DNA from: an uncultured Methanoregulaceae archaeon
Lineage (GTDB): Archaea > Halobacteriota > Methanomicrobia > Methanomicrobiales > Methanospirillaceae
Direction: 5' to 3'
NCBI GenBank assembly: GCA_963705255.1
Contig: OY970061.1
Location: forward strand, 1,984,001-2,048,000
DNA: 64,000 nucleotides
Notes under the pieces: generated by a model
Seen by the model: the letters and a program-made list of their open reading frames with translations, nothing else
Database searches by the model: none
What the model was told of the DNA's origin: nothing
Position numbers and translations under genes: made by a program
Shown: one piece after another, positions 16,472 to 48,845 of the stretch
Numbering within the stretch: position 1 is the stretch's first letter
Layout of the letters: every line of letters begins with the position of its first letter

Positions 16472-18490
16472 CTACCCCACGCCGACCCCCTCCATCATCT
16501 TCATGACCTCCTCCTTATCCCGGTAATACTGCTGGACCATCTGGGTCACGGTATGGTAATCCCTGATGTGGGTCTTCTGCATCCAGTTGATGAACCGGGT
16601 CCTGTCTTCCAGTTCCTGCTGGAGCTTTTCTTTGCTGACACCATGGGTATCCCGGATCTTGTCGAACAAAAAGCTGCGCCCCTGCCACTTGAACTCATCA
16701 ACCTCAGGCACCCACTTAAATACCGTATTGGTGATGAGGTCCCCCTTATCCCTGTCGAGTTCAAGGATCTCTACGATATTGGATATCCTTCTCATGCTCC
16801 GCTCGCCTTTCTTGATGTGCATCGGAAAGATGACGAGATCGAGGTTCGAGAGGAGGCTCCTTGGCACATTCATCGGGTTGGATTCCACACGGGCGAGCAG
16901 TTCATCCATGGATCCGGCATGGATTGTTCCAAGCGCCGCGTGACCGACGGCGATTGCCTGGAAGAGCGTGAAGGCTTCTCCGCCCCGTACCTCACCAACG
17001 ATGATAAACTCGGGCCGCTGCCGCAGGGCCGCGACCAGGAGATCGTAGAGCGAGATGTCGCCAGGCGATTTTGAGGAACCCCCGCCGAGACCAGAGATAC
17101 CGCTTGAGCCCCCACTGGATTCAGAGGTTCCGAACCCTGAACGGGTGATTGACTGGATCCAGTTGGGATGCATAAGGTTCAATTCAGCGGTATCTTCGAT
17201 GGAGACGATCTTGTATTCCGGGGGGATGAAACTGCAGAGAACGTTGAGGAACGTGGTCTTACCGGTTGCGGTTCCGCCCGATACGAGAATCGAGCGCTTG
17301 TATTCCATGAGGATCCACGTGTAGGCAAGCTGTTGCGCGTCGATTGACCCGTAATCCATGAGTTCGATCGAGGAGATCGGGTTGGCCCTGAATTTACGGA
17401 TTGTAAAAGTTGAGCCTCTCTTGGTCACTTCACCGCCGAGCGTGATATTGGCACGGCTGCCATCCGGGAGAGTAAGATCGCGGATCGGCTGGAGGAGAGA
17501 GACGTGACGGCCGCTTACCTGTGCGAGTTTCAGGACAAAGTTGTTCAGTTCGACTTCCGCAAACTGGACATTGGTCCTGATAGACCCGTACGTGCGGTGC
17601 TGGACATAGATATTCATGTTCGAGCCGTTGCAGCTGATATCTTCGATGTACTTATCCTTCATCAGGGTGTCAATCCGCCCGTACCCGAGGTAGTTTTTCT
17701 TAAGGTGAAAAAACATCCTTTGTTTCTGGGTATCGGAGAGTTTGAGCCCGAAGATGTGCATCAGCGAATAGAAACGGTCGTGGAGGTAAATCTCCCGTTG
17801 GGCGGCGTCGATAAGCTCGACGTTCGTACTCACCAGCTTTTCGAATGCGTTCTCGATAATCCTGAGTGCACTGGCCTCCTCATCGCTCAGTGCCGGCTCG
17901 GCAACGCTGTAGACGAGTGCCCCTTCCTGCCGGATGAATTCGATATGGACGAACTGGTAAGGCTCCTCGACGATATACGTGATATTGACGTCCCTGAGCG
18001 CACCTTCGAGCGAAGGAATGGATGTCTCCCCGGGATCGAAGGTCACGGTATCGATCTCCCGTTCCGCAGGCCTGGAAAAGACTGAGAGCAGTTTCTGCAG
18101 TCCTCCCAATGGCGTACTGGCAATCCGGCTCCCGTCTCGAACGTTCACCGAAGAATCCGAACCCTGCATCTGAACAGCTGGTGGAGCAACGGTTGCAGCA
18201 CCGGTAGCGGCAGGGTCGGTTTCCAGTTTCTGCGCAGAAAATTCCTCTTCGTAAGGTTCCTCTTCCACCATTAATGACCGGAGTTTCCGGAACCCGGAAA
18301 GCCCGCCGGCATTGCGCCTGCCTAAAGGCTTTGCACGGGGATTTTCTCTGTCAGCTTCGTGGGGTGTCTCAATTCTTCCAGCCCCCTCAGGAGGGGAACC
18401 GGCCGGCATCAGGTCCTGATCATCAGGGTCGGTATCGAGAGCCCATGACCGGAGTTTTCCCGTAAAGGAGCTGGTATTGGAGTCTGTCAT
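16472..18490 (-). CDS. Type IV pilus / type II-IV secretion ATPase (FlaI/VirB11/PilB family)
   Basis: IEDISCNG, TFTIRKF, Walker A GGTATGKTT, VSIEDTAE, LRQRPEFIIVGEVRG, TIHA. Confidence 0.93.
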   Translation of the reverse strand: MTDSNTSSFTGKLRSWALDTDPDDQDLMPAGSPPEGAGRIETPHEADRENPRAKPLGRRNAGGLSGFRKLRSLMVEEEPYEEEFSAQKLETDPAATGAATVAPPAVQMQGSDSSVNVRDGSRIASTPLGGLQKLLSVFSRPAEREIDTVTFDPGETSIPSLEGALRDVNITYIVEEPYQFVHIEFIRQEGALVYSVAEPALSDEEASALRIIENAFEKLVSTNVELIDAAQREIYLHDRFYSLMHIFGLKLSDTQKQRMFFHLKKNYLGYGRIDTLMKDKYIEDISCNGSNMNIYVQHRTYGSIRTNVQFAEVELNNFVLKLAQVSGRHVSLLQPIRDLTLPDGSRANITLGGEVTKRGSTFTIRKFRANPISSIELMDYGSIDAQQLAYTWILMEYKRSILVSGGTATGKTTFLNVLCSFIPPEYKIVSIEDTAELNLMHPNWIQSITRSGFGTSESSGGSSGISGLGGGSSKSPGDISLYDLLVAALRQRPEFIIVGEVRGGEAFTLFQAIAVGHAALGTIHAGSMDELLARVESNPMNVPRSLLSNLDLVIFPMHIKKGERSMRRISNIVEILELDRDKGDLITNTVFKWVPEVDEFKWQGRSFLFDKIRDTHGVSKEKLQQELEDRTRFINWMQKTHIRDYHTVTQMVQQYYRDKEEVMKMMEGVGVG

Positions 18491-20008: not shown

Positions 20009-20167
20009 AGATAAGATTAAGTTACTATAGTCTTAAACCATTTCCTATATTTTTCAGGATGAGTGCATAAAATAATATCGGAACCAGATTTTTCTTGCAA
20101 TCATATACCATTTTTACGACTGATGGAAGGGAAAGATTGATGAAACTTCCGACCCTATAGTTATTCG

Positions 20168-21085: not shown

Positions 21086-23083
21086 TCACTGTACGTACCA
21101 GTCGTGAATGGTCTGGTTCGCCGCGCCGTCGATCATGGTCGAGTTGTCCGATGAGATAAGGCTCAGGCTCCCCTGCCCGTTCATGCCGAGGCTGTTGATC
21201 TGGATCCAAGCGTTGTCAAGGTCGTTGAGGATCGGCGAACCGTCGACGATGAATAATGTCCGCGCCGATGCAGGAGGGAAATAGTAGGTCAGGGCGGTGT
21301 TGAAATCACTCATATACGGGATGTAGATGCTGTCAATCTTCCCCTCCGATATGAGGTCGCCGTCGATATAGAGAGCCATATCCGGGAAACTGAACTTGAG
21401 GATTTTTCCGGAGTCGATGTGGATATCGCCGGACTGATCCTTCTGCGCCACGATACGGACGACAGCCCCTTTCGGGATCTCGCGGAACCCGCCGTTCATA
21501 CCGATCGTTGCCGGGGAATTGCTGATTACAAACTGGACGTTGGAGTCCTTGCGGATGATACCCTGTTTCCCGGTCTTCACAACGATATCCTGCAGGGGGA
21601 GCATGTAGGGGGCCGTCACCGTAACGTACCCGGTCTTGAACGCATCGCTGCTGGCGTAGACGGTGCCTATGGAAAGCCAGACCGGGTAGACCCCGGGCTG
21701 GTCGTACTCAACAACCGGGTTCGGGTCGTTCGAATAGATCGGGGTGGCATTGGGCCCGAAACTCCAGTTCCACCACCATGGCGAGCCCGACGAGAGATCC
21801 TGGAACCTGACCTTGAGCGGTGCAGCTCCCGTTAACGGGGTGCCATTGAAATCGGCGACCAGTTGCGGCGAGTCTACAATGACCGCATTCTCCCGGATAC
21901 GGGAGTCGGTCTGGTCGCCGCTGTGTACCGTGAGATTGATGGAATAGGAGCCGGGGTCCTGGTACTGGTGGACCGGATCTCTCTCCGATGACGTGCTCCC
22001 ATCCCCGAAGTCCCACGACCACGCGGTCTCATTCTCCCGGATACCCACCGACTTGTCCCGGAACGAGACATTGAACGGTGCCAGGCCTTCATCCGGCGGG
22101 CCGGAGGAGAAATCTGCGATGAGGGCGGGCGAGAGGGAGATCGAGTCCGCTTTCCCTTCGTAGAAGGCAGGAAAGCCGACGAGCGTAAGATCACTGCGGA
22201 TATCGGCAGTATCGAGGGATAGATCGATCTGCGAATTTTCTTCTCCTGACAGGTTCTCCTCTCCGTCGATGACGAGCTGGCGAATATCCCCTTCTGTCGG
22301 AATAATCCCAAACGACAGGTTCGCCCGGGCACTCGCAGGGCCCGCGACATCACAGTCCCCGGATACGCCGGTGGCAGCCTGTGAACCGTTGACAAAGAGC
22401 GTCGCGTCATCAGCACTAAACGCAAGCAGGTTGCCGTACCGTATGGTCACATTTCCGGGGGAATCGATATCTGTCCTGAGCTTCACCACCGAGCCGTTGG
22501 GGATGGTTATGTGCTGCCCGGCTATGGTGACCGAAGTGTCGTTGCGATCCGACACGAAGACAAAATATGACCCTTTCTTCAGCACGCCCTGCCGGAGCGT
22601 ATCGAGAAGGACCGTGTGCTCCTGACGGATCCCGTCGCCGACCGCCGTATTCTGGGTAATGGTCTGGGGTGCCCCGTCACCCCGGGTAACCGTAAGCGTA
22701 ACATTGTAGCTCCCGGGCGACGCGTACTGGTGGACGGGGAAACGGCTGTCGCTCGTACTGTTGTCGCCAAAGTCCCAGTACCAGGTCACGGGATCACCCC
22801 GGCTCAGATCGAGAAACTTCATGGTCAGCGGAGTGTACAGATCCGAACGCGACCCGGAGAAATCTGCAATGAGGGGTTTTTGAAGCGGCGTTGAAAGAGA
22901 GGTTGCCATCCCCCCAATCGGCGTCGTCGGGGACGCCGAGGCCCTGGGCTCGAACACCTGGGCCAGGACAGCCGGGCCGGGGAGCAGGTGGAAAAAAGAT
23001 GCTGCACCGGCAAGAAGGAGAACCATGAAGAGGATGCCGGCGATGAGCACGCGTTTTTTTATACGGGGAAATGAACGCTTCAT
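21086..23083 (-). CDS. Membrane-anchored PKD-repeat surface protein
   Basis: Start MKRSFP at 23083; N-terminal TM; three PKD domains (WYWDFGD, WSWDFGDG, WNWSFG) and two copies of another domain. Confidence 0.85.
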   Translation of the reverse strand: MKRSFPRIKKRVLIAGILFMVLLLAGAASFFHLLPGPAVLAQVFEPRASASPTTPIGGMATSLSTPLQKPLIADFSGSRSDLYTPLTMKFLDLSRGDPVTWYWDFGDNSTSDSRFPVHQYASPGSYNVTLTVTRGDGAPQTITQNTAVGDGIRQEHTVLLDTLRQGVLKKGSYFVFVSDRNDTSVTIAGQHITIPNGSVVKLRTDIDSPGNVTIRYGNLLAFSADDATLFVNGSQAATGVSGDCDVAGPASARANLSFGIIPTEGDIRQLVIDGEENLSGEENSQIDLSLDTADIRSDLTLVGFPAFYEGKADSISLSPALIADFSSGPPDEGLAPFNVSFRDKSVGIRENETAWSWDFGDGSTSSERDPVHQYQDPGSYSINLTVHSGDQTDSRIRENAVIVDSPQLVADFNGTPLTGAAPLKVRFQDLSSGSPWWWNWSFGPNATPIYSNDPNPVVEYDQPGVYPVWLSIGTVYASSDAFKTGYVTVTAPYMLPLQDIVVKTGKQGIIRKDSNVQFVISNSPATIGMNGGFREIPKGAVVRIVAQKDQSGDIHIDSGKILKFSFPDMALYIDGDLISEGKIDSIYIPYMSDFNTALTYYFPPASARTLFIVDGSPILNDLDNAWIQINSLGMNGQGSLSLISSDNSTMIDGAANQTIHDWYVQ

Positions 23084-23322
23084 ATATCGGTTCCGGGTAT
23101 CGAAGAGTCTGAGGAAGAAGGTCGCCGATGGAGGATGATGGTTCGTGTGCACTGGCTGGATCCGGAGGGTATTCCGCACCGGGTTTTATGACTACTGTAC
23201 TCTTCCGGGTTTTTTTGAAATATATCTTTTGAGTAGAGAATATAGAGTGATATAATGTCCCCATATGTTTTTCAAAAGTTCAGTCTCTGCAGCTATTCCC
23301 GTGCGACAGTGTGCGCTGTGGT

Positions 23323-25818
23323 TCAACCGAGACACCACCGGGTTGCGCTGTGCCCGTTGAACGCAACCTGCATGTACGTATTCTTCAGGTCGTTAACCGC
23401 CGCGTCCGGGACTTCGTAAATGAGGTAGCCGTCAATCGCCTGACTGGGCCCGGGTTTGAGGTTGTAATTCAGGTAATCCATATCGGTTACACTGTTCTCC
23501 TGCCATCCCGAAATACCAGTGCTGGCAGGCGCCGGTGTCGGAGTTGCGGGTGTCGCCGTCGTATTGTTAAGAAGGCCCTGATCTTCAAAGATATTGTACC
23601 CCATCAGGAAGGCGTAGTCCCGCTTGTCCTGCCCGAGCTCCCGGATCCACTCGTAAGGGATATTGGGAAAGACAGCGCTGTAATCGTTGATATTCTGCTG
23701 GTCGGCTAACGACAGGTCGAAATAGGGACTGTGACCATAGCTGACGCCATTGTAGGTTACATTGAACTGGTCTGCAGAGGGAATGATGGCGCTCATCTTC
23801 CCGGTGTTCTCAATCCTGATGAAGACGACGAGGTACGAGTCCCCGGTTGCGGGGACCTGCTGCACAAACCGGTTCCAGTCTGCCCACCACCAGAAGTAGA
23901 ACGGTAGCACCTTCACGTCATATATGGTGGCGCGGATCGCGTGGGACGGATCGCCGTACTGGTAATTCTCGCGGAGGGAGAGCGCGTCCCGGACCGGCAC
24001 TCCCCCGACAGAGGTCGCTGGTGCGGGTCCGGAGGCGGACCTGGAGGTTTCCGACGGAGTTACCGGGTTCGTTGTCGTGGGACCTTCACCGTTCAACCCC
24101 TCGGATGCGAGCAATGCTGCGAGACGGGCGCTCCGGTCGGCGGCAGACAAAGATGCCGAGGATGATGACGCTGATGCGGGGGTATTGCCGGTATTGAAGA
24201 GCCCCGACCCGGCCGAAGAGAGCACGCATGCGACCGCGAGGACGAGGCAGAATCCGGCTGCCACGCCGGCAGCGCCGGCCTTCCGGTTCTTCGCCCTGAA
24301 GGCCCCGCCCCGTTTTGCAACGAACAGTCCGAAGACGAGGCCGGCTACGGCAACGATGAGGGTGAGGGAGGTGGAGAAGAGGGCGGCAAGCGACGGGCTC
24401 GCCGGGCCGAGCGCATGGTTGAGCGGAGGTATACCGGCAAGGATTGCGATGAGGATAAGAATGACCAGCGGGATGGTGAATGGGAGGAGGGCGCGGATGA
24501 AGGGGCGGATTGAACGTCTTGAACTTCCATGATCCGCCGGTTGTACATTAATTGCTCCTTCGGGATGATCCTTCTTACCGGGTACTGGAATACGCATCTT
24601 CTGGCGGAACGTACGGAACCATTGCCTGATGCTGGTGCCGTCTGAATAGATTTTTTCCCCTGGATGCGATAGTTTCGGGGGGTTTGTGGCAGAGTGAACG
24701 ACCGGGATTGTATCGGCATCAGGTGAAAATTGCGGACCCGGCATCGGCTCTGCCGGTGTTCCGCCGTGGCGGACCACTTCCGGCTCGGAAAACAAACCCG
24801 CTGGTACCGGGGGGGCAGTCTCCTCGTCGGTACGCAAGATCAGATCTTTTGGTTTTTTCCTGCGGAAAGACTTTGATAGAGATCTGAAAAGTGAAGACAG
24901 GCGGTTATCCTGATGCCCCTGTGCCTTTGCCGTGGCATAGGAGAGAATTCCCTTTGCCGAGATGTTTATGAGCATCACCATCATGATGAGGATAAACCCG
25001 GCAGCAAATATTGACGACACGGGAAAGACATTGGAATTTTCATAGGAGGTATAGAGGAATACCGGTAGTGACCCGACCAGATTATTGAGTGGATAAATCT
25101 TTATGCCAAGAAGAAACTGCGGGTTCAGTGCGATCCTGAATTCCGGCATGTTCTGGGAATACCCCGCGGTAAGGATGACGACTGCCGACTCTTCTGCAGC
25201 CCTGCCGAATCCCAGGATAGCCCCGACGATGATGCCGGAGAATGCAGAGGGGACGATGATATTCCGGATTGTCAGCCATTTTGTTGCACCGAGTGCGTAG
25301 CTGCCCTCTTCAAGTTCCTTGGATACGCGTGCAATTGCGTCCTCAGTTGCGCGCTCAATCACCGGGAGTATCAGGATGGCAAGTGCCACGGTTCCTGCAA
25401 AGAGGGACTCTCCCCCGGTAATTGGCCTGAGATAGACGACCAGTACGAGGACGCCGAATATCCCCAGTACTATCGAGGGAGTGCCCGAGAGCACTTCGAT
25501 CATCAGCCGTAAAAACCGGGTGAGATGGTTGTCGGGCGCGTATTTCTTGAGATAGATTGCCGTTCCGATTGCGAACGGGATCGCAAGGATAGTAGACGTG
25601 ATGGCCAGAAGAATAGTACCGACAATGGCATTTGCGATCCCGGTCCCGAGACCCATCCCTGAATTGATTTCTGTGAAGAGAATAAAATGCGGCGTCAGGG
25701 ATGCAATGCCTTTAAGGAAGATAATCACGAGAATGAGCAGGAGCATTCCTGCGGCAGAGAGCGCGGCAGCTCCGCAGATCCCCATCATGATCGTCCCTTT
25801 GAGCTTCCGGAGGTTCAT
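23323..25818 (-). CDS. pstA: Phosphate ABC permease PstA with long C-terminal extension (extra TMs + extracellular beta domain, DUF4352-like)
   Basis: IVGT, LSGTPSIVLG, EEGSYALGATKW, GRAAEESA in the first ~295 aa; then linker, 3 TMs and YLVVFIRIENTG...NLKPG...GYLIYEVP; one uninterrupted 831-aa ORF. Confidence 0.88.
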   Translation of the reverse strand: MNLRKLKGTIMMGICGAAALSAAGMLLLILVIIFLKGIASLTPHFILFTEINSGMGLGTGIANAIVGTILLAITSTILAIPFAIGTAIYLKKYAPDNHLTRFLRLMIEVLSGTPSIVLGIFGVLVLVVYLRPITGGESLFAGTVALAILILPVIERATEDAIARVSKELEEGSYALGATKWLTIRNIIVPSAFSGIIVGAILGFGRAAEESAVVILTAGYSQNMPEFRIALNPQFLLGIKIYPLNNLVGSLPVFLYTSYENSNVFPVSSIFAAGFILIMMVMLINISAKGILSYATAKAQGHQDNRLSSLFRSLSKSFRRKKPKDLILRTDEETAPPVPAGLFSEPEVVRHGGTPAEPMPGPQFSPDADTIPVVHSATNPPKLSHPGEKIYSDGTSIRQWFRTFRQKMRIPVPGKKDHPEGAINVQPADHGSSRRSIRPFIRALLPFTIPLVILILIAILAGIPPLNHALGPASPSLAALFSTSLTLIVAVAGLVFGLFVAKRGGAFRAKNRKAGAAGVAAGFCLVLAVACVLSSAGSGLFNTGNTPASASSSSASLSAADRSARLAALLASEGLNGEGPTTTNPVTPSETSRSASGPAPATSVGGVPVRDALSLRENYQYGDPSHAIRATIYDVKVLPFYFWWWADWNRFVQQVPATGDSYLVVFIRIENTGKMSAIIPSADQFNVTYNGVSYGHSPYFDLSLADQQNINDYSAVFPNIPYEWIRELGQDKRDYAFLMGYNIFEDQGLLNNTTATPATPTPAPASTGISGWQENSVTDMDYLNYNLKPGPSQAIDGYLIYEVPDAAVNDLKNTYMQVAFNGHSATRWCLG

Positions 25819-26765: not shown

Positions 26766-27902
26766 TCAGACGAAGTCGTAGAGCGAGTACATACCGGCGT
26801 TGTTGTACGCGGTTGCTTCGGTCGGTGACTTTGCGAAGTTAATCAGGTTGGTAACAACCGAGCTTGCTGAGCTGGTGCCCGGGGTCGTGACGATACCGTT
26901 GGTTGATGCAGTGGGTGCAGTTCCCTTGGTGATCCAGTAGAGACCGCCAACAAGGCCCTGGGGGTAGTTCTTTGCGGATCCGCCAGTGTTGTCCTGTGCA
27001 TGCTGGTAATACCAGTCCTTGAGGGAGTTCTTGATGTTAGCGTGGGACGGGACGTACGTTACGGGTGATCCAGAGGAACTGTCGGTGACGTTCAGAATGA
27101 TGATTCCCGATGCGGGAGTTGTGCTGGCAACTCCACCGGTAATCGCGTATCCTGCGTCAACGTAGCCGAGAGCGGACGGGGTGGTCTGAACTAAGGAGAG
27201 TTCTGCTGCATTGCCGTTGTTGGTTCCGGCGTTTGCAATCGGCATTGAGGTGCCAAGGTAGCTGTTGACCGTGTTTTCGGTGCCGGAGCCGGACTCGCGC
27301 TGTTCAACTACTGTATTTATGAGAACGTCGCCACCAGTAGAGGCTGCAGTTGTCTTGCCATTTAAGACATTAGCATTGGTGAATGCAAATACGAGATCTG
27401 CCGTGTGAACGCCACCGGTTTGTGCCGCTGGTGATACCGCGGGTGTCGCCTTGTTGGTGATGAATACGACACCGCGGCCACCGATCTGCGTGTAGTAGAG
27501 GTTCTGGTAGTTCGGGTCGCTCGGGTTGTTTGTCTGGGCGGTTAGGATGTTGGATGCAGACGATGCTGCACCGATGTCGCTGATGCCCATCGCTACGGAT
27601 GAGACACCGGCGCCGGAGCCGCCACCCTGGACATTCAGCTGGTAGCCGGGGTTTGCCTTCTGGAAGTCAGACTGGAGGTTGAGCTCTGCGGGAAGGAGCG
27701 TGGTCGATCCAGCGATGAGGATCTCGGTCTGGGATGCAGACGACGCCTGCGAGGCGGACGCCTGTTTCGATACATCGGTCGAGAAGGTACCCATGATGGT
27801 ACCGACAGCGACCGCACCGATGACTGCGACGACGATAAGAACGAGGGTCGCAACGATCGGCGAGACTGCCATTTCATTGTTCATGTGTTTCAGATTTGCC
27901 AT
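26766..27902 (-). CDS. pstS: PstS-family phosphate-binding protein with N-terminal archaeal type IV pilin (class III signal) domain
   Basis: ATG at 27902 with SD AGGTGA at 27910-27915; MANLKHMNNEMA/VSPIVATLVLIVVAVIGAVAVG; PBP motifs IAGSTT, GGGSGAG, RESGSGT, LGYV. Confidence 0.88.
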   Translation of the reverse strand: MANLKHMNNEMAVSPIVATLVLIVVAVIGAVAVGTIMGTFSTDVSKQASASQASSASQTEILIAGSTTLLPAELNLQSDFQKANPGYQLNVQGGGSGAGVSSVAMGISDIGAASSASNILTAQTNNPSDPNYQNLYYTQIGGRGVVFITNKATPAVSPAAQTGGVHTADLVFAFTNANVLNGKTTAASTGGDVLINTVVEQRESGSGTENTVNSYLGTSMPIANAGTNNGNAAELSLVQTTPSALGYVDAGYAITGGVASTTPASGIIILNVTDSSSGSPVTYVPSHANIKNSLKDWYYQHAQDNTGGSAKNYPQGLVGGLYWITKGTAPTASTNGIVTTPGTSSASSVVTNLINFAKSPTEATAYNNAGMYSLYDFV

Positions 27903-32890: not shown

Positions 32891-33502
32891 ATGGCAATGG
32901 CAAACGGGCTGGAGATCGTCCCCGATAACAGCGTTTTGTGCATTGAAGAGAATTCCGGCAATATCAAATCGATCTATGCACTCTATGCTGCTTCAGAGAA
33001 GGCTGCTGAGGGTGCCGTTGTCATCTACCTGACCCTCCAGACAAAAGATGAACTTCTCGGACAGATGAAACGGTTCGGGATCCCGGTCCGGGATTCCCTT
33101 CGGATTGTCGAGATCTCCCCGGCCCATGCGAAGCTCGACGTCCTCTCGCAGATCGATTCCATCGAAGGCCCGCTCCTCATCATCGATCCCTTTGCCGTTT
33201 TCTTCGTTGACGATTCGACAAAAGATCTTACGGCATTCATGTTCGATCTTATGAAAAAGAGCCGGAAGGGGACCACCGTGCTCCTCCTCATCGATATCGG
33301 CGTCCTTCCCGAACGTTCGGAACAGCTCGTCCGGGCGATGTCCGACGGCATCATCCAGTTTGTCATCGTACCCGAGGGAGACAAGCTGAATAAGTACATC
33401 AATATCCCGAAGATGCGGGGGTCGTTTCCCAGGGACAAGATGCTGCCGTTCACGCTCAACGAAGAGGGGCTGATGATCGATACCCGGGAGAGGCACGGGT
33501 AA
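32891..33502 (+). CDS. RecA/KaiC-superfamily (FlaH/RAD55-like) single-domain ATPase-like protein
   Basis: Degenerate Walker A EENSGNIKS, VIYLT, LLIIDP, SDGIIQF, IPKMRG, PFTL..EGL. Confidence 0.8.
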   Translation: MAMANGLEIVPDNSVLCIEENSGNIKSIYALYAASEKAAEGAVVIYLTLQTKDELLGQMKRFGIPVRDSLRIVEISPAHAKLDVLSQIDSIEGPLLIIDPFAVFFVDDSTKDLTAFMFDLMKKSRKGTTVLLLIDIGVLPERSEQLVRAMSDGIIQFVIVPEGDKLNKYINIPKMRGSFPRDKMLPFTLNEEGLMIDTRERHG

Positions 33503-35251: not shown

Positions 35252-35259
35252 GACCCGGT

Positions 35260-36633
35260 CTATGAATTGGAATTCGCTATGATGTTCGCTTTGCCGGTAT
35301 TGCCACCCGCTTTTGCAAATACGATGTAATTACCCGGGGTGGAACCAAGGATGGCCCGGACACTCACAATCCCGTTCTTGTCAGATGTATCTGAAGTCGG
35401 CGTTACATTTCCATCAGGAATGATGCTGAACTGGACTACCGTGCTATTCACCGGATTTCCAGACGGATCGGTGAGCTGGAACTGAATCGGATCTTTGAGA
35501 GGAAGTCCAGACCACACCCTGGTAGATATCAGGAGATACCGGAGTGATATTAAACGCCTGTGCCGGAGGTACAGCCGGCGGAGGAAGTATAAACAACGCA
35601 CACGCGATGTAGCCCGCAGCCATCAGCACGACCGCATGTTTGAGCCCGTACCGGGCATCGCCTTCGCTGATTTTCCCGATGATGAGACCGCCGAAGAACG
35701 AGTTGATCATGATCATGTGGAAGAAGCCCCGGGAAAAATCGAGCCCGACAAGCCCGTTGGCCTTCCCTAAGATATTTGTAGAGCCGAGCTGCTCGACAAA
35801 GGGGAGCAGGCTCGTCGAAAGGGTGTATATTATAAAGACAATGATGCCCTGCGCAAAATAGAAGATCATCACGTACTGCGAGAGATTGCCTTCCTTCTCC
35901 CGTTCGATCGCGATGATGTTCCTCATGTCCTCGGACGCCTTGAGGATCAGGTCCGCAACGGCACCGCCGGAGTAGGATGCCTGGACGACAAGGGCCGTGT
36001 ACCGGGTGATCATCTCCGAATGAAGGGACTTTGCCATCGCCTTCATCGATTCCTCGAATGACTTCCCGTAGGTCATCGAGGTTGCCGCGATGCGGACATG
36101 CGGCGTGAGCAGGCCGAGGTCGGTCTTCGAGAGCTCCTTGACCGACTTGATGGGATCGAGGCCGCCCCGCATCAGCTCGGAGAGCTTGAAGAGGAACTCC
36201 GTATAGATCTCCTCTTCCGCCGGATATTCCGTTTCTGGAGGGTAATATCGATGGCATAGGGCGTAATCGCGATGAGCACGGCAATGACCAGAACCTCGTC
36301 CAGTCCCATTTTCGATGCGGGTGCCTGTGCAGGGGCCTGCGCGGTCTCGCTTCCTGGGGTCGCATTCCCTCCACTGCCTTGGTTGAGCTGGGCGGTGAGC
36401 TCCTGCAACTGCTTGAGCCGTGTATCGTCAGTGGTACCGGTAGCTTTTTGCGTCCCCTGGAAGGCGGACCCGGTCAGGAATGCACCGAGCAGGACCATCA
36501 GGGCGATCGCCACCGGCACTCCGATGGTGAAGATCTCCCGCGGCGGGTTGTAGAGGATACTGATCCGCTCTGCTATATCGTGCATCTTCTGGATGTTCTC
36601 TTTGAAAAAATCCGGTTTCGGAGAGGGGCTCAT
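35260..36633 (-). CDS. Type IV pilus platform protein (T2SS-F/TadC-like) with C-terminal Ig-like (Big_1-like) domain; indels at ~36214 and ~35512
   Basis: Reconstructed LQKRNIRR/EEIYTEFLFKLSELMRGG...GLIIGKISEG..YGLKH...DIYQGV/SGLPLKDPIQFQLTDPSGNPV...TSDKNG. Confidence 0.75.
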
Positions 36634-36638
36634 GGCAA

Positions 36639-37541
36639 TCAGGGGTTGGTCGAATATTTTACGGAGAGCATCTGGAGGAAGACGATGTTGATGACCGGGA
36701 TCAGGACATAGACGAGGACGTTGAACATGTCCGCAGGCTTGAAAGGCCCGAACTCGATGCCGAGCGCTCCCGAGATCACGATCCCGAGCACCGCGAGAGT
36801 GATCGTCATTACGACCCCGCCGAGGTACCCTTCGCCGAAGACCGCAAGCGATTCAACAAACTCCTTGTAGGTCTGCCTGCGGATGGCCATCAGTTCCTTG
36901 GATTTGGTCTCGAGGTAGGATTTCAGCCCGCCACCCCCGTAGATGATGTTGGTCATGTCTACGCAGATGTCCCGGAAGAGGTCCGACGGCGTGTTCTGGG
37001 TGAGGCCGTTCATCGCGGTCACCACGTCTTCTCCGAGGATGTCGACGCGGAAGAGCACCTTCCGGAACTCGTTGGAGATCTGCCCGTACTCCTCGCGGGA
37101 TATGCGGCGGATGATATCCAGCGGGGTCGCTCCCGAACTTGCGAGGATCGACATGAACGCGAGTGCATAGGGGATCTGCTTGTCGATATCCCGTTTCTTG
37201 TTCTCGATCTCGTTCTGGAGATAGAAGGGAAAGCCTATGCCCGCTGCCCCCGCACCGATCAGCGTCATGAGAAGGATGTACACTGCCGGTGTTGCCGACT
37301 TGACCGGGCTCTCCGGGAGGATAAATATGATCGATGAGACGATCAGCATTGCCACACCGGCAAGTGCCGTCGTCACGAACCAGAGTGAAGTGAACATCCC
37401 CGGTGTCATCTCGAGATCTGCCTGGTAGATGAGCTTCGTGATGTCCCTGCTGGGATTACGGTCGTATTTTTGGCCGAAAATATAGCAAAACCGCTTGTAA
37501 GACTCCAATAAATTCACGGTACTCAATGCATTCTGGTTCAT
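36639..37541 (-). CDS. Type IV pilus platform protein (T2SS-F/TadB/FlaJ-like)
   Basis: IDKQIPYALAFMSILASSG, YGQISNEF, GEDVVTAM, TPS. Confidence 0.9.
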   Translation of the reverse strand: MNQNALSTVNLLESYKRFCYIFGQKYDRNPSRDITKLIYQADLEMTPGMFTSLWFVTTALAGVAMLIVSSIIFILPESPVKSATPAVYILLMTLIGAGAAGIGFPFYLQNEIENKKRDIDKQIPYALAFMSILASSGATPLDIIRRISREEYGQISNEFRKVLFRVDILGEDVVTAMNGLTQNTPSDLFRDICVDMTNIIYGGGGLKSYLETKSKELMAIRRQTYKEFVESLAVFGEGYLGGVVMTITLAVLGIVISGALGIEFGPFKPADMFNVLVYVLIPVINIVFLQMLSVKYSTNP

Positions 37542-42518: not shown

Positions 42519-43711
42519 TCAACGGCTTCCCCTGACCGCAACGTCGATGGGCGCGAAATTCCCGGATATCACTTTCACGGTGCCGCTTCCTGAGGTCACG
42601 TTCGAGCTGTTCATCCCGTTCCCATCGGTTATCCCCTCATAGTTGTCGAGAGACAGGTTTCCGAACTGGTTGGTATCGATGATATAGTTCACGACCGCAT
42701 CGGGCACGGGTCTGCCGCTGATGTCCTTTATCGTGACATTGATGAAGTAAGACGGAGGATTCGGGTTGAACTGTACCCAGAAGTTCGCCGGTGGGACAAA
42801 CTGGTTATTGGAGGGAATTACCACATAATCTGAGCTCCTTCTCATCCCGCTGTTGTCCTGCACGGTCAGGTATACACAGAACGGGCCCGGTAGGTCTGGC
42901 TGGAAGTGAGCAATCTTCCCCTCTAAATAGTTCGGGGTAGTGAGGTTTTGCGTATCCGTGCAGTTTCCCTGTTGGTCGGGTGCACCATCTGTTATCGTCC
43001 CGGATGCGTCCTGGACCGACCAGTTCCAGTCAACGATCGTATTATTGTTCGCTGCAAAGGATTGCGTCCCGTCCAGCACGAGGGCCTCCCGCTGGATGGA
43101 ACCGAGGTTCTGCGTCACGGTATTCGACTGGATCACCGGGTTCGGGGGTTGGAACGATTTCCCAAACGTATTGTACAGGGTGGTCATTACCTGGATCGTT
43201 ACCTGATCGTTCGGCCCGATGCGGGGAGGCGGCGAGAAAAAATCCGTCGTGAAATTGATCCGGATCTTTTCACTGGCACTCGCTGGCACCGTAAGAGAAG
43301 ATGAAGGGTCCTGGCTTGAGAAATTATAGGGGATATATACGGGCTGAGAGGAAGAGGAGACCACCGTGAAGTTATGTGCATACATGTCATTGACCGATAT
43401 GCCGATCACGCTTGAATCTTCGTTATTCAGGTTGGTGAGGGAGAACGTCACCGCATTATAGCTCCGGTTGAGATACCGTTTGGCGGCCAGAAAGCCTGAT
43501 CCCACGCAGCCGGGACGGATTCAAAAGTTACACCGGTGATCAGGATCTGTTCATTCTGCACTGCAGAAATGTGGGCCTGCCGGTTCATCGCATCTTTCTG
43601 CATCTGGGAGATCATGATCGCGAGGCCGGCGGCGGCGGTCACTGTGATGAGGATGAGGAGGAGCGTCCCGACGATCACCGAAACGCCGTCATCACCTGTC
43701 CTTGCGATCAT
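42519..43711 (-). CDS. Large archaeal type IV pilin-like protein / adhesin with PKD-like and Ig-like domains; indel near 43475
   Basis: Class III signal MIARTGDDG/VSVIVGTLLLILITVTAAAGLA; the downstream frame has LDGTQS..IVDWNW...VYLTVQDNSG and VTIKDISGRPV...TDGNG. Confidence 0.75.
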
Positions 43712-44419: not shown

Positions 44420-45070
44420 TTAGTGAATCTCGATCCTCTCACCAGTCTGCATATAATGGACATTTTCTGCGATTTTGCAGGCATGGTCGGCACAGCGTTC
44501 GAGGTAACGGGCGACGAGGATGTAGTAGGTGCAGCGGGTGATGGTCTTGGGGTCTTCCATCATGTAGGTGATCCCCTCGCGGAAGATCGAGTGCCTGAGC
44601 GCATCGATCGTATCGTCCCGGGCAGAGAAATCTGCTATCAGCGCAACCGAATCGGTATCATATGCTTTGATTGCATCGTCGATCATATCCATGGTAAGTT
44701 CCGCCATGTGGGGGATACTCATCAGGCGGGCGATGTGGGGCCTGTCGGAAATATCCTTGACGATGTTGGCTATCACCTTGCCGTATCGTCCAATCCGCAT
44801 GGATGCATTGATCACCTTGAGCGTGCAGGCAATGACCCGCATGTCCTTTGCCATCGGCTGGCCGGTGGCGATGAGCTGGTAACAGTGCTCCTCAAGCTTC
44901 ACTTCCATCTCGTGCAGTGCATCTTTCTTGGCTACGACCGTGGCAGCAAGTTCCTTGTCCTGCCGTATCAGTGCATCCACAGCGTCCCTGAGCATCCCGC
45001 GGCCGAAGAGCGCCATTGCCACGGTCTCTTTTTTCGTGGTTTTGAGTTCCGTATGGAATTTTTCTGCCAT
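44420..45070 (-). CDS. phoU: Phosphate signalling protein PhoU
   Basis: QPMAKDMR, RDDTID, RYLERCADHACKIAE; follows pstB. Confidence 0.93.
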   Translation of the reverse strand: MAEKFHTELKTTKKETVAMALFGRGMLRDAVDALIRQDKELAATVVAKKDALHEMEVKLEEHCYQLIATGQPMAKDMRVIACTLKVINASMRIGRYGKVIANIVKDISDRPHIARLMSIPHMAELTMDMIDDAIKAYDTDSVALIADFSARDDTIDALRHSIFREGITYMMEDPKTITRCTYYILVARYLERCADHACKIAENVHYMQTGERIEIH

Positions 45071-45079
45071 TCCTTTCTC

Positions 45080-45841
45080 CTAACCGAACCGGCCGGTGAT
45101 GTAATTCTCCGTGAGTTCCTCTCTGGGGTGCTCGAAGATATCCACGGTCTTCCCGCACTCGATGAGCTTTCCCAGATACATGAATCCCGTATAATCGCTG
45201 ACCCGCGCTGCCTGCTGCATGTTGTGGGTGACGATGATGACCGTGTACTCCTGCTTGAGCATATCGATCAGGTTCTCGATCTTCGCGGTCGCAATCGGGT
45301 CAAGCGCCGAACAGGGCTCGTCCATCAGGATCACCTCAGGCCCGACAGCGAGGGTGCGGGCGATGCAGAGCCGCTGCTGCTGGCCACCGGAGAGACCGAG
45401 GGCGGAATCGTTCAGCCGGTCTTTTACTTCGTCCCAGATGGCGGCATGACGGAGGCTCTGCTCCACATCCCTGTCAAGTTCGCTCCTGTCCTTCACGCCA
45501 TGGACCTTCGGGCCGTACGCGATGTTCTCGTAGATGGATTTCGGGAACGGGTTGGGCTTCTGGAAGACCATACCGACCTTCTTCCGCAGGGAGACGACAT
45601 CCGTTTCCTGGGCATGGATATTCTCATTATCGAGCATGATCTCACCGGTGATCTTCACGTGGTCGATGAGATCGTTCAACCGGTTGAAGCAGCGCAGCAG
45701 GGTCGATTTCCCGCATCCCGAAGGACCGATCAGGGCAGTCACCCTGTTCTTGGGGATCTTCATGGTGATCGACTGGAGCGCATGCTTCTCGTTATACCAG
45801 AGGTTCAGATTGTTTGTGGAAATGATACTGTTGTCAGACAT
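45080..45841 (-). CDS. pstB: Phosphate ABC ATPase PstB
   Basis: [44 protein letters not shown]. Confidence 0.97.
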
Positions 45842-45842
45842 A

Positions 45843-47798
45843 TTATCCCCGTGATTTGTTCTGGAAATGGGTTCTCACAAGAATCGCTGCCAAATAAAAT
45901 CCAACCACAAGCGTCAGCAGGACCAGGGCCGTGCCGTACCTGTTGGTAGAGGAATTCGAGACATTGGTTGCAAGGTAGAACAGCTGGAACGGCAGCGCCA
46001 TGACAGGATCAAAGATTGACGAAGGCAGGTACCGCTGCGAAACGACAACTGCCGTAAACATGATGGGCGCTGTCTCACCGGCAGCCCTCCCTATGGAGAG
46101 GATCACGCCGGTTACAATGCCGGGAACTGCAGGGGGAAGGACCACTTTACTGATGGTCTGCCACCTGGTGGCCCCGAGTGCAAGGCTCCCCTCCCGCAGG
46201 GAATGGGGGATATTCTTCAAGGATTCTTCGGTTGTCCTGATTATGGTGGGCAGAACCATCATCGCCAGCGCGATCTGCCCTGCAATCATCGAGATCCCGA
46301 CATTGAGGTACAGGACAACGAAGGCAAACCCGAAGAGGCCGAATACGATCGACGGAGTACCGTTGAGGAGATCGGCGCCGGTCCGGATCAACCGGGTGAC
46401 CCTCCCCTCCCGGGTGTATTCCACCAGGTAAATCGCTGCCCCGACACCCAGGGGCAGTGCGATGGCGATCGCGCCGATCACCAAGTACATCGTCCCGACG
46501 ATCGCCGGAAAAATTCCTCCTGATCTGCCTGCATCCTTAGGTGACTGGGTCAGGAAATCCCACGAGAGTGCCGGGAGACCGTGGACGATGATGTCCTGGA
46601 GGATGATGACAAGAATTGCCAGGACGATGAGGGTAGCTCCTGTGATCAGTGCGAAGGAGCATTTCTGGATCGTTGCCTGTGAGAGCCGGTTCCTGCCGAA
46701 ATACCATGCGCCACCCGCGAGCAGGACAAGGGCCGCCAGCCACCAGGATGCGGCTGCGAACAGAACTATAAAGAGGATAGCCGCAAAGAGGATTTTTGAT
46801 ATCCTCACGATCGAGTCCATTGCAGAGGTGCTGATGAAGGGTTTCCGGCCGGGACGGGTCGTGCGCCCTTCGTGAAGGTAGCGGAGGATGGCGACCGCAG
46901 AAAGGTTGATGACGAGCGTGATGAGCAGCAGCACGACGGCCACGGCAAACAGTGCATGGTAATGATCGCTGCCGACGGAGACCTCCCCCATCTCAATACC
47001 AAGCGTCGCGGTCAGGGTTTCCACCGTGGAAAAGATGTTCCAGATCGGGTTGGGGATGATCGCGGTATTACCGGCCACCATCAGGACCGCCATAGTCTCC
47101 CCGACCGCCCTGCCGATACCGAGAATGATGGCAGCAGCGATGCCCGAGAGGGCTGCCGGCACGATCACCCGGCTGATCGTCTGCCACCGGGTTGCACCGA
47201 TGGCAAGCGAGCCTTCGCGGAATTCGTGGGGGACGGAGCTGATCGCATCCTCGGACACGCTGACGATCGTGGGAAGGGCCATGATCCCCAGAAGGATGGA
47301 TGCGGCAAGCCATGAGTTTCCCGTCGGGACATCAAATACAATTCGTATGAAGTTCGTGAGAACGACGAGACCGAAGAACCCGTAGACCACCGAGGGGATC
47401 CCTGCCAGCAGTTCGATTGCCGGTTTGAGGATCGTTTTCACCCGGGGGGATGCAAGTTCGGCGATGTAGATTGCACAGCCGAGGGAAAGCGGGATAGCGA
47501 TGACCATGGCACCGATGGTGACGAGAAGTGTCCCGACAATAAGGGGGAGGATCCCGTACAGCGGCACCGCTGCAGTTGGTTGCCATGACAACCCAAGGAG
47601 AAAATCAGGCAGGCTGACCTGCTCGAGGATTGGGTACGCATCCCGTACCAGGAAGAGGATGATGAATGCAATGACAATAACGGCAAAGAAGGCTGTGAAG
47701 AAGAAGAGGGTCTTGATCGATCGCTCCCTGAGCCGGGAGCTGCGGGCACTGCCCGGTGAGGCGGTTCTGAATCCGATTGTGGTTCCGGCAAGTTTCAC
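45843..47798 (-). CDS. pstC: Fused PstC-PstA phosphate permease
   Basis: [13 protein letters not shown]...[10 protein letters not shown], then [10 protein letters not shown]...GRAAGETAP, in one 651-aa ORF. Confidence 0.92.
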
Positions 47799-47852
47799 GA
47801 TCTTCGCCCCATGGAAAAGAAAAAGAATTGATGTTCATCCGGACCGATCATC

Positions 47853-48845
47853 TCAGCTCAGGGGGACATATCCCTGATCGGCGACGATCTTCTGCCCATC
47901 TGGGCTGAGGATGTAGTTGATGAAGTCGCCCGCAAGTCCGGTTGGCTTGCCGTTGGTGATGAGATAGAGATCGCGGGACATCGGATAGGTCAGGTCCTTC
48001 ACGGTGGCAACAGAGGGAACAGACACTACACCATTCGTTCCCATGATGGGGACCGCTTTGACACTGCTGCTCAGGAACCCGATTGAAACGTAGCCGATGG
48101 CCAATGGGGTCTGTGCAACGTTCTGGCTGACCGCGCCATTGGAGTTCAGCTCCTGCATCGAGGCGATCGGGTTCGTATTTCCCGGCAGAACGCTCTGTTC
48201 GAAATACACCCGGGTTCCTGATGCGCTGTCACGCCCGATAACGACGACCTGGTTATTGGTGCCGGAAACACCTGCTCCGGTAATCTGGGACCATTTGGTG
48301 ATCTTGCCAAGATAAATCTGCTTGATCTGATCGAAGGTGATAGTCTGGATCGTGTTGGCCGGGTTGACAATGACGGCAATGCCATCCTGCGCAATTGGCG
48401 TAATGACGAAGGCGGGATACTTGGTCATCTCGGCGCTGGTCACTTCACGGGAGGTCATGCCGATATCAACGGTCTTGGCACCAATCGCCTGGATGCCGAC
48501 ACCGGATCCGCCACCCGAGATCTGGATATCTGCGTCCGGGTGGGTTGCCATATAGGCGTCAGCTGCTGCCTGGGCAATCGGGAGGACGGTAGTCGATCCG
48601 CTGATCTTGAGGGTCTGTTTCTGGCCTGTTGAAACCGGCGCACTCGTGGTTACCGGTACTGCGGTCGTTGCCTGGGCAGCGGGAGAGTTAGTGGGGGTGG
48701 TCGATATTGCAGTTGCTGCACCCGGTGCCTGCGTGGAAGCCGTATTCGTTGATCCGTTGCCTGTACACCCTGCAGCAATCGCGAGCATGAACACTGCGAC
48801 GAGGCTGAGGGTAATAATCAGATAAGAACTCCGTTTCGCATTCAT
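47853..48845 (-). CDS. pstS: Phosphate-binding lipoprotein PstS
   Basis: Lipobox IAAGC, Thr/Ala linker, ISGSTTV, GGGSGVG, DIGMTSR, RDSASGT, YPMSR. Confidence 0.95.
   Translation of the reverse strand: MNAKRSSYLIITLSLVAVFMLAIAAGCTGNGSTNTASTQAPGAATAISTTPTNSPAAQATTAVPVTTSAPVSTGQKQTLKISGSTTVLPIAQAAADAYMATHPDADIQISGGGSGVGIQAIGAKTVDIGMTSREVTSAEMTKYPAFVITPIAQDGIAVIVNPANTIQTITFDQIKQIYLGKITKWSQITGAGVSGTNNQVVVIGRDSASGTRVYFEQSVLPGNTNPIASMQELNSNGAVSQNVAQTPLAIGYVSIGFLSSSVKAVPIMGTNGVVSVPSVATVKDLTYPMSRDLYLITNGKPTGLAGDFINYILSPDGQKIVADQGYVPLS

Follow-up and report, generated by a model that had tools for sequence, protein, structure and literature searches.

A PstS-like protein with a pilin-type N-terminus and a linked type IV filament machinery in a Methanoregulaceae archaeon: a candidate phosphate bindosome-like module

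Can a phosphate-binding protein be built like a type IV pilin, and does it then travel with a filament machine of its own? This question is raised by a gene for a PstS-like protein, here called pstS-pil, in 64,000 nucleotides of DNA from an uncultured Methanoregulaceae archaeon (GenBank assembly GCA_963705255.1, contig OY970061.1, positions 1,984,001 to 2,048,000 of the forward strand). This whole stretch is called the window, and coordinates are counted from its first letter unless a genome or locus is named. We found that the product, PstS-pil, joins a pilin-like N-terminal module to a PstS fold, and that its gene is linked in other archaea to genes for a type IV filament ATPase and platform. 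The reading we prefer, at a probability of about 0.65, is that these genes encode a phosphate bindosome-like type IV filament module with its own assembly machine, unrelated to the Bas machinery of the Sulfolobus bindosome. The gene, its N-terminal parts and its ATP-binding cassette (ABC) permease partners are as follows.

26766..27902, minus strand: pstS-pil, PstS-like phosphate-binding protein with a pilin-type N-terminus (from PBP_like_2, the AlphaFold2 fold and the ligand columns)
27867..27902, minus strand: leader, residues 1-12 (MANLKHMNNEMA), ending in Ala, with a putative class III cleavage site at A12/V13
27783..27866, minus strand: residues 13-40 (VSPIVATLVLIVVAVIGAVAVGTIMGTF), hydrophobic first half of a long N-terminal helix
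25815..26735, minus strand: pstC2, phosphate ABC permease subunit (TIGR02138, 278.7 bits vs cut-off 196.45)
23323..25818, minus strand: pstA2 (residues 1 to ~295; TIGR00974, 234.4 bits vs 193.45) with an extension of ~530 amino acids (aa)

Translated from the ATG at 27902, pstS-pil encodes 378 aa (P0001); the same open frame extends upstream to an ATG at 28025, which would give an alternative product of 419 aa. The start at 27902 is favoured because homologues begin MANLK..., MYANK... or MNNEMA..., because GGTGA lies 7 nt upstream of it, and because the T-rich TTTTTTAT lies 37-44 nt upstream; we take GGTGA to be Shine-Dalgarno-like and TTTTTTAT to be TATA-like. The gene is intact in the assembly and its C-terminus agrees with that of orthologues, a recorded 352-aa version (P0002) differing by a frameshifted tail alone. 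It is the first gene of pstS-pstC-pstA on one strand, with a gap of 30 nt to pstC and an overlap of 4 nt between pstC and pstA. An earlier reading of this DNA from its letters alone (the sequence-only reading) had placed it at the head of such an operon, and both permease genes pass their equivalog cut-offs.

The head of the protein is a PstS domain. PstS-pil passes PBP_like_2 (PF12849) with 49.7 bits against a gathering threshold (GA) of 27 over residues 51-266, and 98 of 99 family members match this model at E <= 0.01. The PstS models of NCBIfam are missed (TIGR02136, 53.6 vs 206.6 bits; TIGR00975, 36.6 vs 205). Hence, scoring far under these cut-offs, PstS-pil belongs to a divergent branch of PstS. 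The AlphaFold2 model, made with the 99-member alignment, has a predicted local distance difference test (pLDDT) score of 87.2 and a predicted template-modelling (pTM) score of 0.81, and consists of an uninterrupted helix of 42 residues (15-56) followed by a two-lobed binding-protein fold. In Foldseek the best match is the phosphate-bound PstS 4gd5 (E 1e-16, TM score 0.81 on the target). Phosphate-binding proteins rank first in this search, 9k3x_E (PstS within the cryo-electron microscopy structure of E. coli PstSCAB) being matched at E 1.8e-15, and the family profile finds PstS structures among PDB sequences at E 1e-34.

The motifs expected to contact phosphate are GSTT (65-68), GSG (95-97) and R202-x3-S206-G207-T208. 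Among the 99 members the ligand residues are kept as follows: S66 in 94, T67 in 81, S96 in 90, D109 in 89, R202 in 95, S206 in 90, G207 in 92 and T208 in 89. We take these columns to map to E. coli PstS T10, S38, D56, R135 and S139-T141. The fold and the three motifs (GSTT, GSG, RxxxSGT) had been proposed by the sequence-only reading, and the model and the motif positions bear them out. Three close Methanoregula paralogues (P0024, P0029 and P0061) keep the pilin N-terminus and have the first ligand motif, AGSTT, replaced by AGTWYGVP, AGTFLPIP or DGSWLGVV; their ligand may be something other than phosphate.

The middle of the gene is variable. About 490 nt (26969-27459) did not align in blastn (E 1e-20) to positions 10444-10907 of L001, a locus from a Methanoregula metagenome-assembled genome (MAG), and the flanks of this segment are 94.5-95.5% identical. 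The segment encodes surface loops of the head (residues ~150-310). At the protein level the best tblastn segment has 71% identity, residues 1-77 being identical and the last ~70 nearly so. This pattern suggests recombination or diversifying selection on an exposed protein.

The N-terminus has the anatomy of an archaeal pilin. It contains no Cys and hence no lipobox, as the sequence-only reading had said, and the window's other PstS (47853-48845, minus strand) carries the lipobox ...LAIAAGC/TGNG (here and below a slash marks a cleavage site). The 12-aa leader contains K5 and E10, the helix region begins VSPIVATL, and residues 13-40 are uncharged. A short leader before an AVSPIVA-type pilin helix had likewise been claimed, and the translation agrees. 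Residues 12-45 (AVSPIVATLVLIVVAVIGAVAVGTIMGTFS) are nearly invariant among homologues that are 40-60% identical overall, and the helix region hardly changes even where identity in the globular part falls to about 40%. In the 99-member alignment S14 is invariant; V13, A18, T19, L20, L22, V25, G29 and A30 are conserved in at least 90%; and residue -1 (column 12) is always small (A in 78, G in 21), while the leader varies in length and sequence.

An exhaustive HMMER search of 1.84 billion representatives, made without a word index, gave 629 relatives at E <= 0.001. The motif [AGS]-x-S-x is present in 132 of the best 150 representatives (50% clustering); 15 of the other 18 are truncated or mis-started, and 3 have different N-termini. 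Conservation of the N-terminus as an artefact of word seeding was considered and ruled out, since this index-free search gave the same pattern. Distant members show textbook sites, ...RK-A/VSPVVATL... and ...K-G/VSEVVAVL....

We found that this module is related to proven pilins. Searched against all PDB sequences, the family profile matched 8fk7_A and 8fj5_A ('Pilin_N domain-containing protein') and 8rey_M at E 1.1e-4 to 2.9e-4; all three are archaeal pilin/flagellin-like filament subunits, aligned via profile positions 8-72. The remaining matches outside PstS were five weak ones to related binding proteins (DING-type phosphate-binding proteins and molybdate binders). In hhalign, the PstS-pil family aligned with the family of pilin2, a second pilin-like protein of the window, with leader, cleavage site and helix in register (probability 95.6, E 1.3e-8, 40 columns).

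The host genome points the same way in its own pilins. Ten of its open frames pass Pilin_N, with leaders of the NE-x-[AG]/VSPVVG type (...KNEEA/VSPVIG, ...QNESA/VSPVVG, ...QNERA/VSPVVG and ...INENG/VSPVVG), to which ...NNEMA/VSPIVA of PstS-pil is similar. Across the six frames of the 2.6-Mb genome, [AGS]VSP[IVL][IVL][AG] occurs at 12 sites: seven in open Pilin_N pilins, one in PstS-pil, three inside a paralogous enzyme family and one elsewhere. The motif in PstS-pil is thus unlikely to be a coincidence. A candidate class III (A24-type) peptidase gene is present (G000:C1:1210696-1211910), recognised via Arc_PepC_II (90.6 bits vs GA 29.9) and its DIRDRRVP and GGAD motifs; a search with PF01478 gave a weak match only (18 bits). 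Hence, the strong constraint, the homology to proven pilins, the pilin leaders of the same genome and the partner pilin2 together support a pilin-type module rather than a plain anchor.

Several results weigh against this view. The domain check that the sequence-only reading had proposed came out in part: PBP_like_2 is passed, as given above, but PstS-pil stays below the cut-offs of Pilin_N (PF07790, 17.9 vs 25.2 bits) and TIGR02537 (15.6 vs 20), and only 16 of the 99 family members match Pilin_N at E <= 0.01, the best at 1e-4. Position -2 of PstS-pil is Met, which is atypical, a charged residue being expected there in a classical class III site; the 99 members most often have K (18), M (17), E (15), S (13) or R (10). 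In the model, the linker (residues 31-50) has a pLDDT of 66-74 and is predicted to be unpacked on the head, unlike the second half of a classical pilin helix. Lastly, the 12 of 35 short matches that were examined fully include no small core pilin that has this helix: they run into PstS sequence, run into an out-of-frame stretch, or end within or just after the helix. A long filament would thus need 35-kDa PstS heads or pilin2 as its subunits. Of all 35 shorter matches to the helix, 14 carry PF12849; among mid-length matches to residues 1-48 (best 120 of 264), 117 carry PF12849 and the remaining 3 are PstS homologues.

These points suit another explanation, in which the helix is an uncleaved anchor that tethers PstS to its permease and is conserved through packing on PstC2/PstA2, the pilin2 pilus being separate and merely co-regulated, for example for attachment under phosphate limitation. 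The low pilin model scores fit it, as does the confinement of the helix to PstS-like proteins (again the best 120 of 264), which is what co-evolution with one partner would give; a tethered binding protein would also have no docking problem, and pilin2 alone could be the filament subunit. Such an anchor leaves unexplained why a small residue at -1 and then V-S-P follow a short, variable, charged leader, why distant members have the RK-A/VSP and K-G/VSE forms, and why the module matches solved archaeal pilins and aligns in register with pilin2. In addition, paralogues that lie away from pstC/pstA (L020, L023 and L040) retain the same N-terminus. We consider the anchor explanation unlikely.

If PstS-pil is a filament subunit, does a machine go with it? 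Orthologues of filament machinery found near pstS-pil elsewhere are spread over 16.5-43.7 kb of the window, inserted genes having stretched the module across 27 kb in Methanoregula. They are:

16472..18490, minus strand: FlaI/ArlI-like type IV filament ATPase, 672 aa (T2SSE, 113.3 bits)
36639..37541, minus strand: platform-a, N-terminal half (T2SSF_a), like the N-half of FlaJ/ArlJ (T2SSF, 58.5 bits; ArlJ model positions 13-243 of 555)
35260..36633, minus strand: platform-b, C-terminal half (T2SSF_b), with a C-terminal immunoglobulin (Ig)-like domain; three frames in the assembly
32891..33502, plus strand: KaiC/FlaH(ArlH)-like ATPase, 203 aa (Pfam KaiC-type ATPase, 36.2 bits)
42519..43711, minus strand: pilin2, second pilin-like protein (leader part 43451-43711; Ig-like body 42519-43505 in another frame)

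We searched loci from species-representative genomes that encode a relative with the PstS-pil N-terminus. There were 174 matching stretches, of which 102 were confirmed and the best 80 were kept and searched with the window proteins, linkage being counted within 10 kb. The 80 loci are partly non-independent (L060, L064 and L074 are overlapping stretches of one contig, and several pairs share a genome) and come from Methanomicrobiales, Methanosarcinales, anaerobic methanotrophic (ANME) archaea, Methanocella, Thermoplasmata and Nitrososphaerales. The genes linked to pstS-pil were:

ATPase: 59 of 80 loci
a platform gene: 50 of 80
ATPase and platform together: 48 of 80
any of the three (ATPase or either platform gene): 61 of 80
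KaiC-like ATPase: 52 of 80
pilin2: 39 of 80
pstC and pstA, adjacent: 58 of 80
pstB: 15 of 80

The sequence-only reading had set a homologue survey for type IV pilus genes in advance as its refuting test, and the association was found, in these 61 loci and in the co-occurrence across genomes given below. Where the flanks are long (at least 8 kb on both sides, n = 46), 40 loci have the ATPase and 35 the ATPase and a platform gene. No machinery gene was seen within 10 kb in 19 loci, 13 of which have less than 8 kb on at least one side. The six well-flanked exceptions (L005, L020, L023, L029, L063 and L064) include second, unlinked paralogues from genomes in which the full cluster sits elsewhere (L020 beside L017, L023 beside L058). 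As a chance scale we used the density of T2SSE genes above cut-off in the host genome: six in 2.6 Mb, so that ~5% of random 20-kb windows hold one. The canonical lipobox PstS is no clean control, its Methanoregula operon lying within 10 kb of filament genes.

In Methanosarcinales the order is pstS-pstC-pstA-ATPase-platform a-platform b on a single strand, almost without gaps. The locus of Methanolobus sp. WCC5 (L017, open reading frames (ORFs) from 7 kb to the end) illustrates it, and every gene of this cluster has an orthologue in the window:

9998-10996: pstS-pil
11025-11981: pstC
11978-12871: pstA
12986-15367: T2SSE-type ATPase, 793 aa
15368-16285 and 16255-17655: T2SSF-type platform genes
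18134-18829, opposite strand: KaiC-like ATPase
18934-20070: pilin2, 378 aa
from 20111: AbrB-PhoU regulator

Several loci hold more than one PstS-pil. One Methanocellaceae contig (L060, L064 and L074) has three paralogues within ~25 kb around a single ATPase/platform/pilin2 cluster, and several Methanolobus genomes have a second, unlinked paralogue that is ~31% identical to the query (L020, L023 and L040). With several PstS-pil paralogues per cluster or genome, one machine may serve several binding proteins, by analogy with what has been proposed for Sulfolobus. In L068-L079 (Thermoplasmata and Nitrososphaerales), pstS-pil is transcribed divergently from the ATPase-platform operon and usually has no adjacent pstC/pstA; the proteins are longer (~460-480 aa), and their alignment to the query is limited to the first ~150 residues.

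We found the same association in presence and absence across 242 genomes, 121 of Methanomicrobiales (an even species sample) and 121 of Methanosarcinales, related genomes being non-independent. For Methanomicrobiales, platform-a was scored at E <= 1e-30, and a PstS match was taken to include the N-terminus if it started at or before query residue 8. Platform-a orthologues occur in 10 of these 121 genomes and N-terminal PstS matches in 7, all 7 among the 10; none of the 111 genomes without platform-a has one, a further match in G079 starting at residue 45. Three platform-positive genomes gave no such N-terminal PstS match (E <= 1e-15): G086 and G061 are fragmented or incomplete, and G029, 99% complete, remains an exception. 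In Methanosarcinales, relatives of platform-a were present in 27 of 121 genomes; in 20 of these the identity is at least 60%, and the other 7 have a second type that is 35-38% identical. The N-terminal PstS match was found in 26 genomes, namely 23 of the 27 with a platform relative against 3 of the 94 others (G174, G183 and G206). In 19 of the 23, PstS and platform lie on one contig within ~6 kb, including all 7 of the divergent type. The module is patchy, occurring in some 8% of the Methanomicrobiales species genomes sampled and some 22% of those of Methanosarcinales. Hence, from its distribution, it looks like a niche adaptation.

Which machine is this? On NCBIfam models the best matches of its three components are those of the archaellum, ArlI/ArlJ/ArlH (FlaI/FlaJ/FlaH), but all lie below the equivalog cut-offs: the ATPase scores 383.5 bits with FlaI (cut-off 550), the platform genes, which correspond to the N- and C-terminal halves of ArlJ, 76.5 (cut-off 550), and the KaiC-like protein 37.8 with FlaH and 35.7 with ArlH (cut-off 215 for ArlH). 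Unlike in the archaellum, ArlJ is split here. Genes for archaellin, ArlF/G and ArlC/D/E/X were not seen in the Methanolobus cluster (L017); the host genome was not searched for archaellum genes. The Bas machinery is non-orthologous: BasE is the second match of the ATPase at 197.6 bits (cut-off 1000), and the BasF model gives 25.3 bits against a cut-off of 1300, the FlaI and ArlJ models scoring higher.

The linked machinery is also distinct from the other filament systems of the same genome. The window's ATPase shares 52-97% identity with ATPases linked to PstS in other orders and phyla versus 35-45% with four paralogues of its own genome, and platform-a is 46-99% identical to its linked orthologues versus 26-30% to own paralogues. 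In a maximum likelihood tree (606 columns, quick method, supported by the Shimodaira-Hasegawa approximate likelihood ratio test (SH-aLRT) only, with long branches flagged by the program and paralogues of one genome as sole outgroup), 51 linked ATPases and the window's lie on one side of a branch and the four own paralogues on the other (SH-aLRT 98). Within the linked side the order tracks taxonomy over three phyla: Thermoplasmatota, Nitrososphaerota, ANME-1, Methanocellaceae, Methanomicrobiales, Methanosarcinales. By its sequence relationships, the PstS-linked machinery is a dedicated lineage. The host genome also has separate clusters of Pilin_N pilins (G000:C1:1530000-1547000 and 1422000-1426300), the one at 1.53-1.547 Mb adjoining its own ATPase and platform genes. 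Hence, this organism has about five type IV filament systems in all, the PstS-linked machine among them.

In the window the leader of pilin2, the second pilin of the module, reads MIARTGDDG/VSVIVGTLLLILITV, and in L017 the protein starts MAGNDIHAFLRDDRG/VSVIFGTLLLILITV. The Methanolobus orthologue (L017:18934-20070) passes TIGR02537 (24.5 bits vs 20), and its model has a helix at 14-58 and three beta-sandwich domains (pLDDT 85.6), for which Foldseek returned generic Ig-domain stalks only, with low TM scores. The pilin2 proteins have 350-480 aa and three Ig-like domains. A complex prediction that paired mature PstS-pil with mature pilin2 (Methanolobus sp. WCC5, a separate alignment for each protein, no controls) scored 0.00 and speaks neither for nor against an interaction.

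A further point against the filament reading is that the present assembly splits platform-b over three frames and pilin2 over two; the public contigs disagree with this. In L001, whose collinear flanks are 94.5-95.5% identical, platform-b is one intact ORF of 457 aa, from which the window's version differs by two 1-bp indels. We compared 35000-44000 with contigs (not reads) of four public runs, one of them (X1) possibly being the source sample. At 35511 the window has an extra base that the public contigs lack in both of the two covering runs, and the bases missing in the window after 36214 and after 43473 are present in four of four. Further shared indels lie at 38253, 38403 and 42181, roughly one indel error per 1.5-2 kb of this region. 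The frameshifts in platform-b and pilin2 are thus probably assembly errors, not gene decay. Indel errors could also explain the completeness estimate of 89.5%, and why 37.9-39.3 kb has no clean ORF.

Granting a dedicated machine, PstS-pil could be cleaved and yet never polymerised: the machine would extract or position single subunits, or build a very short pseudopilus (cf. type II secretion) that does not pass the S-layer. To our knowledge, no filament has so far been resolved for the Sulfolobus bindosome. In line with this explanation, none of the 12 of 35 short matches examined is a small core pilin with the same helix, the bulky head is modelled on a flexible linker, and PstS must dock on a membrane permease; the Sulfolobus bindosome, too, is still called a proposal in the available text of PMC13705601. 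Yet a dedicated ATPase, split platform, FlaH-like ATPase and large pilin, kept in 39-59 of 80 loci, would be a heavy investment for positioning alone, and we judge such an arrangement quite unlikely. The data do not separate a short from a long assembly.

Does the phosphate context of the window fit a phosphate module? Two further features bear on this.

44420..48845, minus strand: canonical phoU-pstB-pstCA(fused)-pstS operon with a lipobox PstS; the fused PstC-PstA has 651 aa
48969..50012, plus strand: protein with AbrB/MazE-type DNA-binding and PhoU domains, a putative phosphate-uptake regulator (PhoU 69.7, MazE_antitoxin 35.5 bits)

The canonical operon lies directly beside pilin2 and is itself adjoined by a gene like low-molecular-weight phosphatases or arsenate reductases (43863-44414); with this gene and the regulator it forms a 'phosphate island'. 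The AbrB-PhoU architecture also follows pilin2 in Methanolobus L017, and homologues of the regulator (E <= 1e-5) occur in 32 of the 80 loci.

The partner permease has no ATPase gene beside it, which counts against the reading we prefer. The cluster is without pstB, as are 65 of the 80 loci, and five complete genomes that carry the cluster have their best PstB match (one each) at a distant site; four of these matches exceed the TIGR00972 cut-off, and the remaining one falls short of it (334.8 vs 343.2). The host genome has a sole strong PstB match, at 45080-45841 in the canonical operon, the next-best PstB-like match being 36.6% identical. PstC2 and PstA2 nevertheless retain the coupling loops REGSTALGATKWETI... 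and LEEGSYALGATKWLTI..., which we take to be the EAA-type coupling motif. Hence, with no pstB in the cluster and the coupling loops kept, it seems likeliest that the PstC2-PstA2 permease shares a PstB encoded elsewhere in the genome. Besides a low-complexity stretch and more hydrophobic segments, the extension of PstA2 (residues ~300-831) contains a DUF4352-like domain, weakly matched (17.3 bits vs GA 25.9); the extension's tblastn matches (E <= 1e-5) lie only in loci titled Methanoregula, Methanoregulaceae or Methanomicrobiales.

Bacterial Pst complexes also signal to the Pho regulon, and PstS-pil/PstC2/PstA2 might be mainly a phosphate sensor that switches the pilus through the adjoining machinery or the PhoU-type regulator. 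The frequent lack of pstB and the regulator genes in 32 of the loci would agree with such a role. The two permease subunits, however, pass transporter equivalog cut-offs, keep REGSTALGATKWETI and LEEGSYALGATKWLTI, which would be needless without an ABC ATPase, and have a PstB available in 5 of 5 genomes checked. A sensor is therefore very unlikely in our judgement.

In the filament module that we prefer, the PstS-pil pre-protein would insert into the membrane, and the A24-type class III signal peptidase of the genome would cut after Ala12 and so take off the 12-residue leader. The retained hydrophobic helix would then be lifted from the membrane by the dedicated ATPase and platform into a short pilus- or pseudopilus-like assembly, which pilin2 would probably join, and this assembly would put PstS domains in or beyond the S-layer space. 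Captured phosphate would be handed to the PstC2-PstA2 permease, which would borrow the single PstB of the neighbouring canonical pst operon. One objection is that a binding protein held fast in a filament could not reach a permease to dock, a problem that is equally unsolved for Sulfolobus. A broader claim, which we regard as doubtful, is that the module represents a type IV filament of a new functional kind: a nutrient-uptake organelle of ancient origin, passed on mostly by vertical descent, in which an archaellum-type motor core (ArlI-, ArlJ- and ArlH-like) is dedicated to a phosphate-binding pilin and coupled to an ATPase-less ABC permease. In that case the filament might be dynamic, extending PstS heads through the S-layer and drawing them back to the permease ('phosphate fishing'), or the filament ATPase might gate the hand-over; such a filament would differ from the static scaffold imagined for Sulfolobus.

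How does the module compare with known binding proteins on surface structures? Like the Sulfolobus bindosome, it has an ABC binding protein with a pilin-type leader and hydrophobic helix, a type IV ATPase and platform implicated in surface placement, and a binding-protein gene beside its permease genes. The Sulfolobus system binds sugar, whereas here the fold is that of PstS and phosphate is the predicted ligand. The platform is split in two, and a FlaH/KaiC-like ATPase and one large Ig-domain pilin replace the three small Bas pilins; small BasA/B/C-like pilins were not found beside the machinery, pilin2 being the only other pilin of the cluster. Binding-protein and permease genes are clustered with the machinery here but lie apart from it in Sulfolobus, according to the available text of PMC13705601. 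Judged by its genes, the module is bindosome-like in its working and is not a member of Bas.

Canonical PstS proteins (E. coli 1ixh and 9k3x; lipoproteins of Gram-positive bacteria and archaea) share the fold, the ligand motifs and the partner permease genes with PstS-pil. They differ in having a Sec signal or lipobox in place of the pilin-type N-terminus and in lacking ~60-100 loop residues that are extra here, and canonical PstSCAB differs in that the PstS-pil operon has neither pstB nor phoU. The PstS-rich appendages of Pseudomonas aeruginosa (PMC2242829) share the idea of a phosphate-binding protein on extracellular appendages; they are bacterial, and the accessible part of that paper describes no fusion of PstS to a pilin and no dedicated type IV machinery encoded alongside.

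The sequence-only reading knew of no characterised phosphate equivalent, and our literature searches agree, no paper in the collection searched joining 'bindosome' and 'PstS'; 'class III signal peptide' together with 'phosphate-binding' in a full-text search gave one paper, which was irrelevant. The general class is known: archaeal binding proteins with class III signals, methanogens included, have been predicted since the FlaFind work (cited in the accessible text of PMC3387779), and a survey (PMC13705601, PLoS Genet 2026) reports in its available text 4397 candidates, 'also in several methanobacterial members', and proposes type IV filaments functionalised for substrate scavenging. According to the same text, such proteins are encoded alongside ABC transporters and not beside filament clusters, and tying them to a specific filament locus still needs work. 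The words 'phosphate', 'PstS' and 'PBP' are absent from its main text, and the Pfam list of its S9 Fig may include PBP_like_2. Makarova et al. 2016 (PMC4858521) describe KaiC-family ATPases co-transcribed with ATPase/TadC operons in Methanomicrobia; 'ABC', 'transporter', 'permease' and 'PstS' are absent from the main text, and Table S4 may list Pst arCOGs. Relative to the available parts of the 2026 survey, what is new here is a phosphate operon with a dedicated filament locus, specific and conserved.

The bindosome idea has so far rested on one genus and on sugars, with no resolved structure. The link from binding protein to filament machine is left open in the available text of the 2026 survey (PMC13705601), and here gene linkage ties one protein to one machine. 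The genes for one binding protein, its permease, an ATPase, a platform, a FlaH-like ATPase and one more pilin keep together in methanogens, in the methane-oxidising ANME archaea, in Thermoplasmata and in ammonia-oxidising Nitrososphaerales. The set is compact (~10 kb) and has cultured carriers (Methanolobus species, among them M. vulcani, M. profundi and M. bombayensis; Methanoculleus palmolei DSM 4273; and Methanosarcina sp. T3), and phosphate limitation is its candidate trigger. For archaea enclosed by an S-layer, it bears on how phosphate is scavenged in peat, sediments and soils.

Two further genes lie among those of the module. Between platform-b and a PHP-like gene, 34445-35251 (minus strand) encodes 268 aa with an N-terminal hydrophobic segment and an internal duplication of ~105 aa, and gave no family match. 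The other lies between pstA2 and the ATPase gene:

21086..23179, minus strand: PKD-domain surface protein (PKD_4, 131.3 bits) with an ordinary N-terminal anchor, MKRSFPRIKKRVLIAGILF...

Same-strand matches to this PKD protein just downstream of pstA occur in loci titled Methanoregula or Methanoregulaceae.

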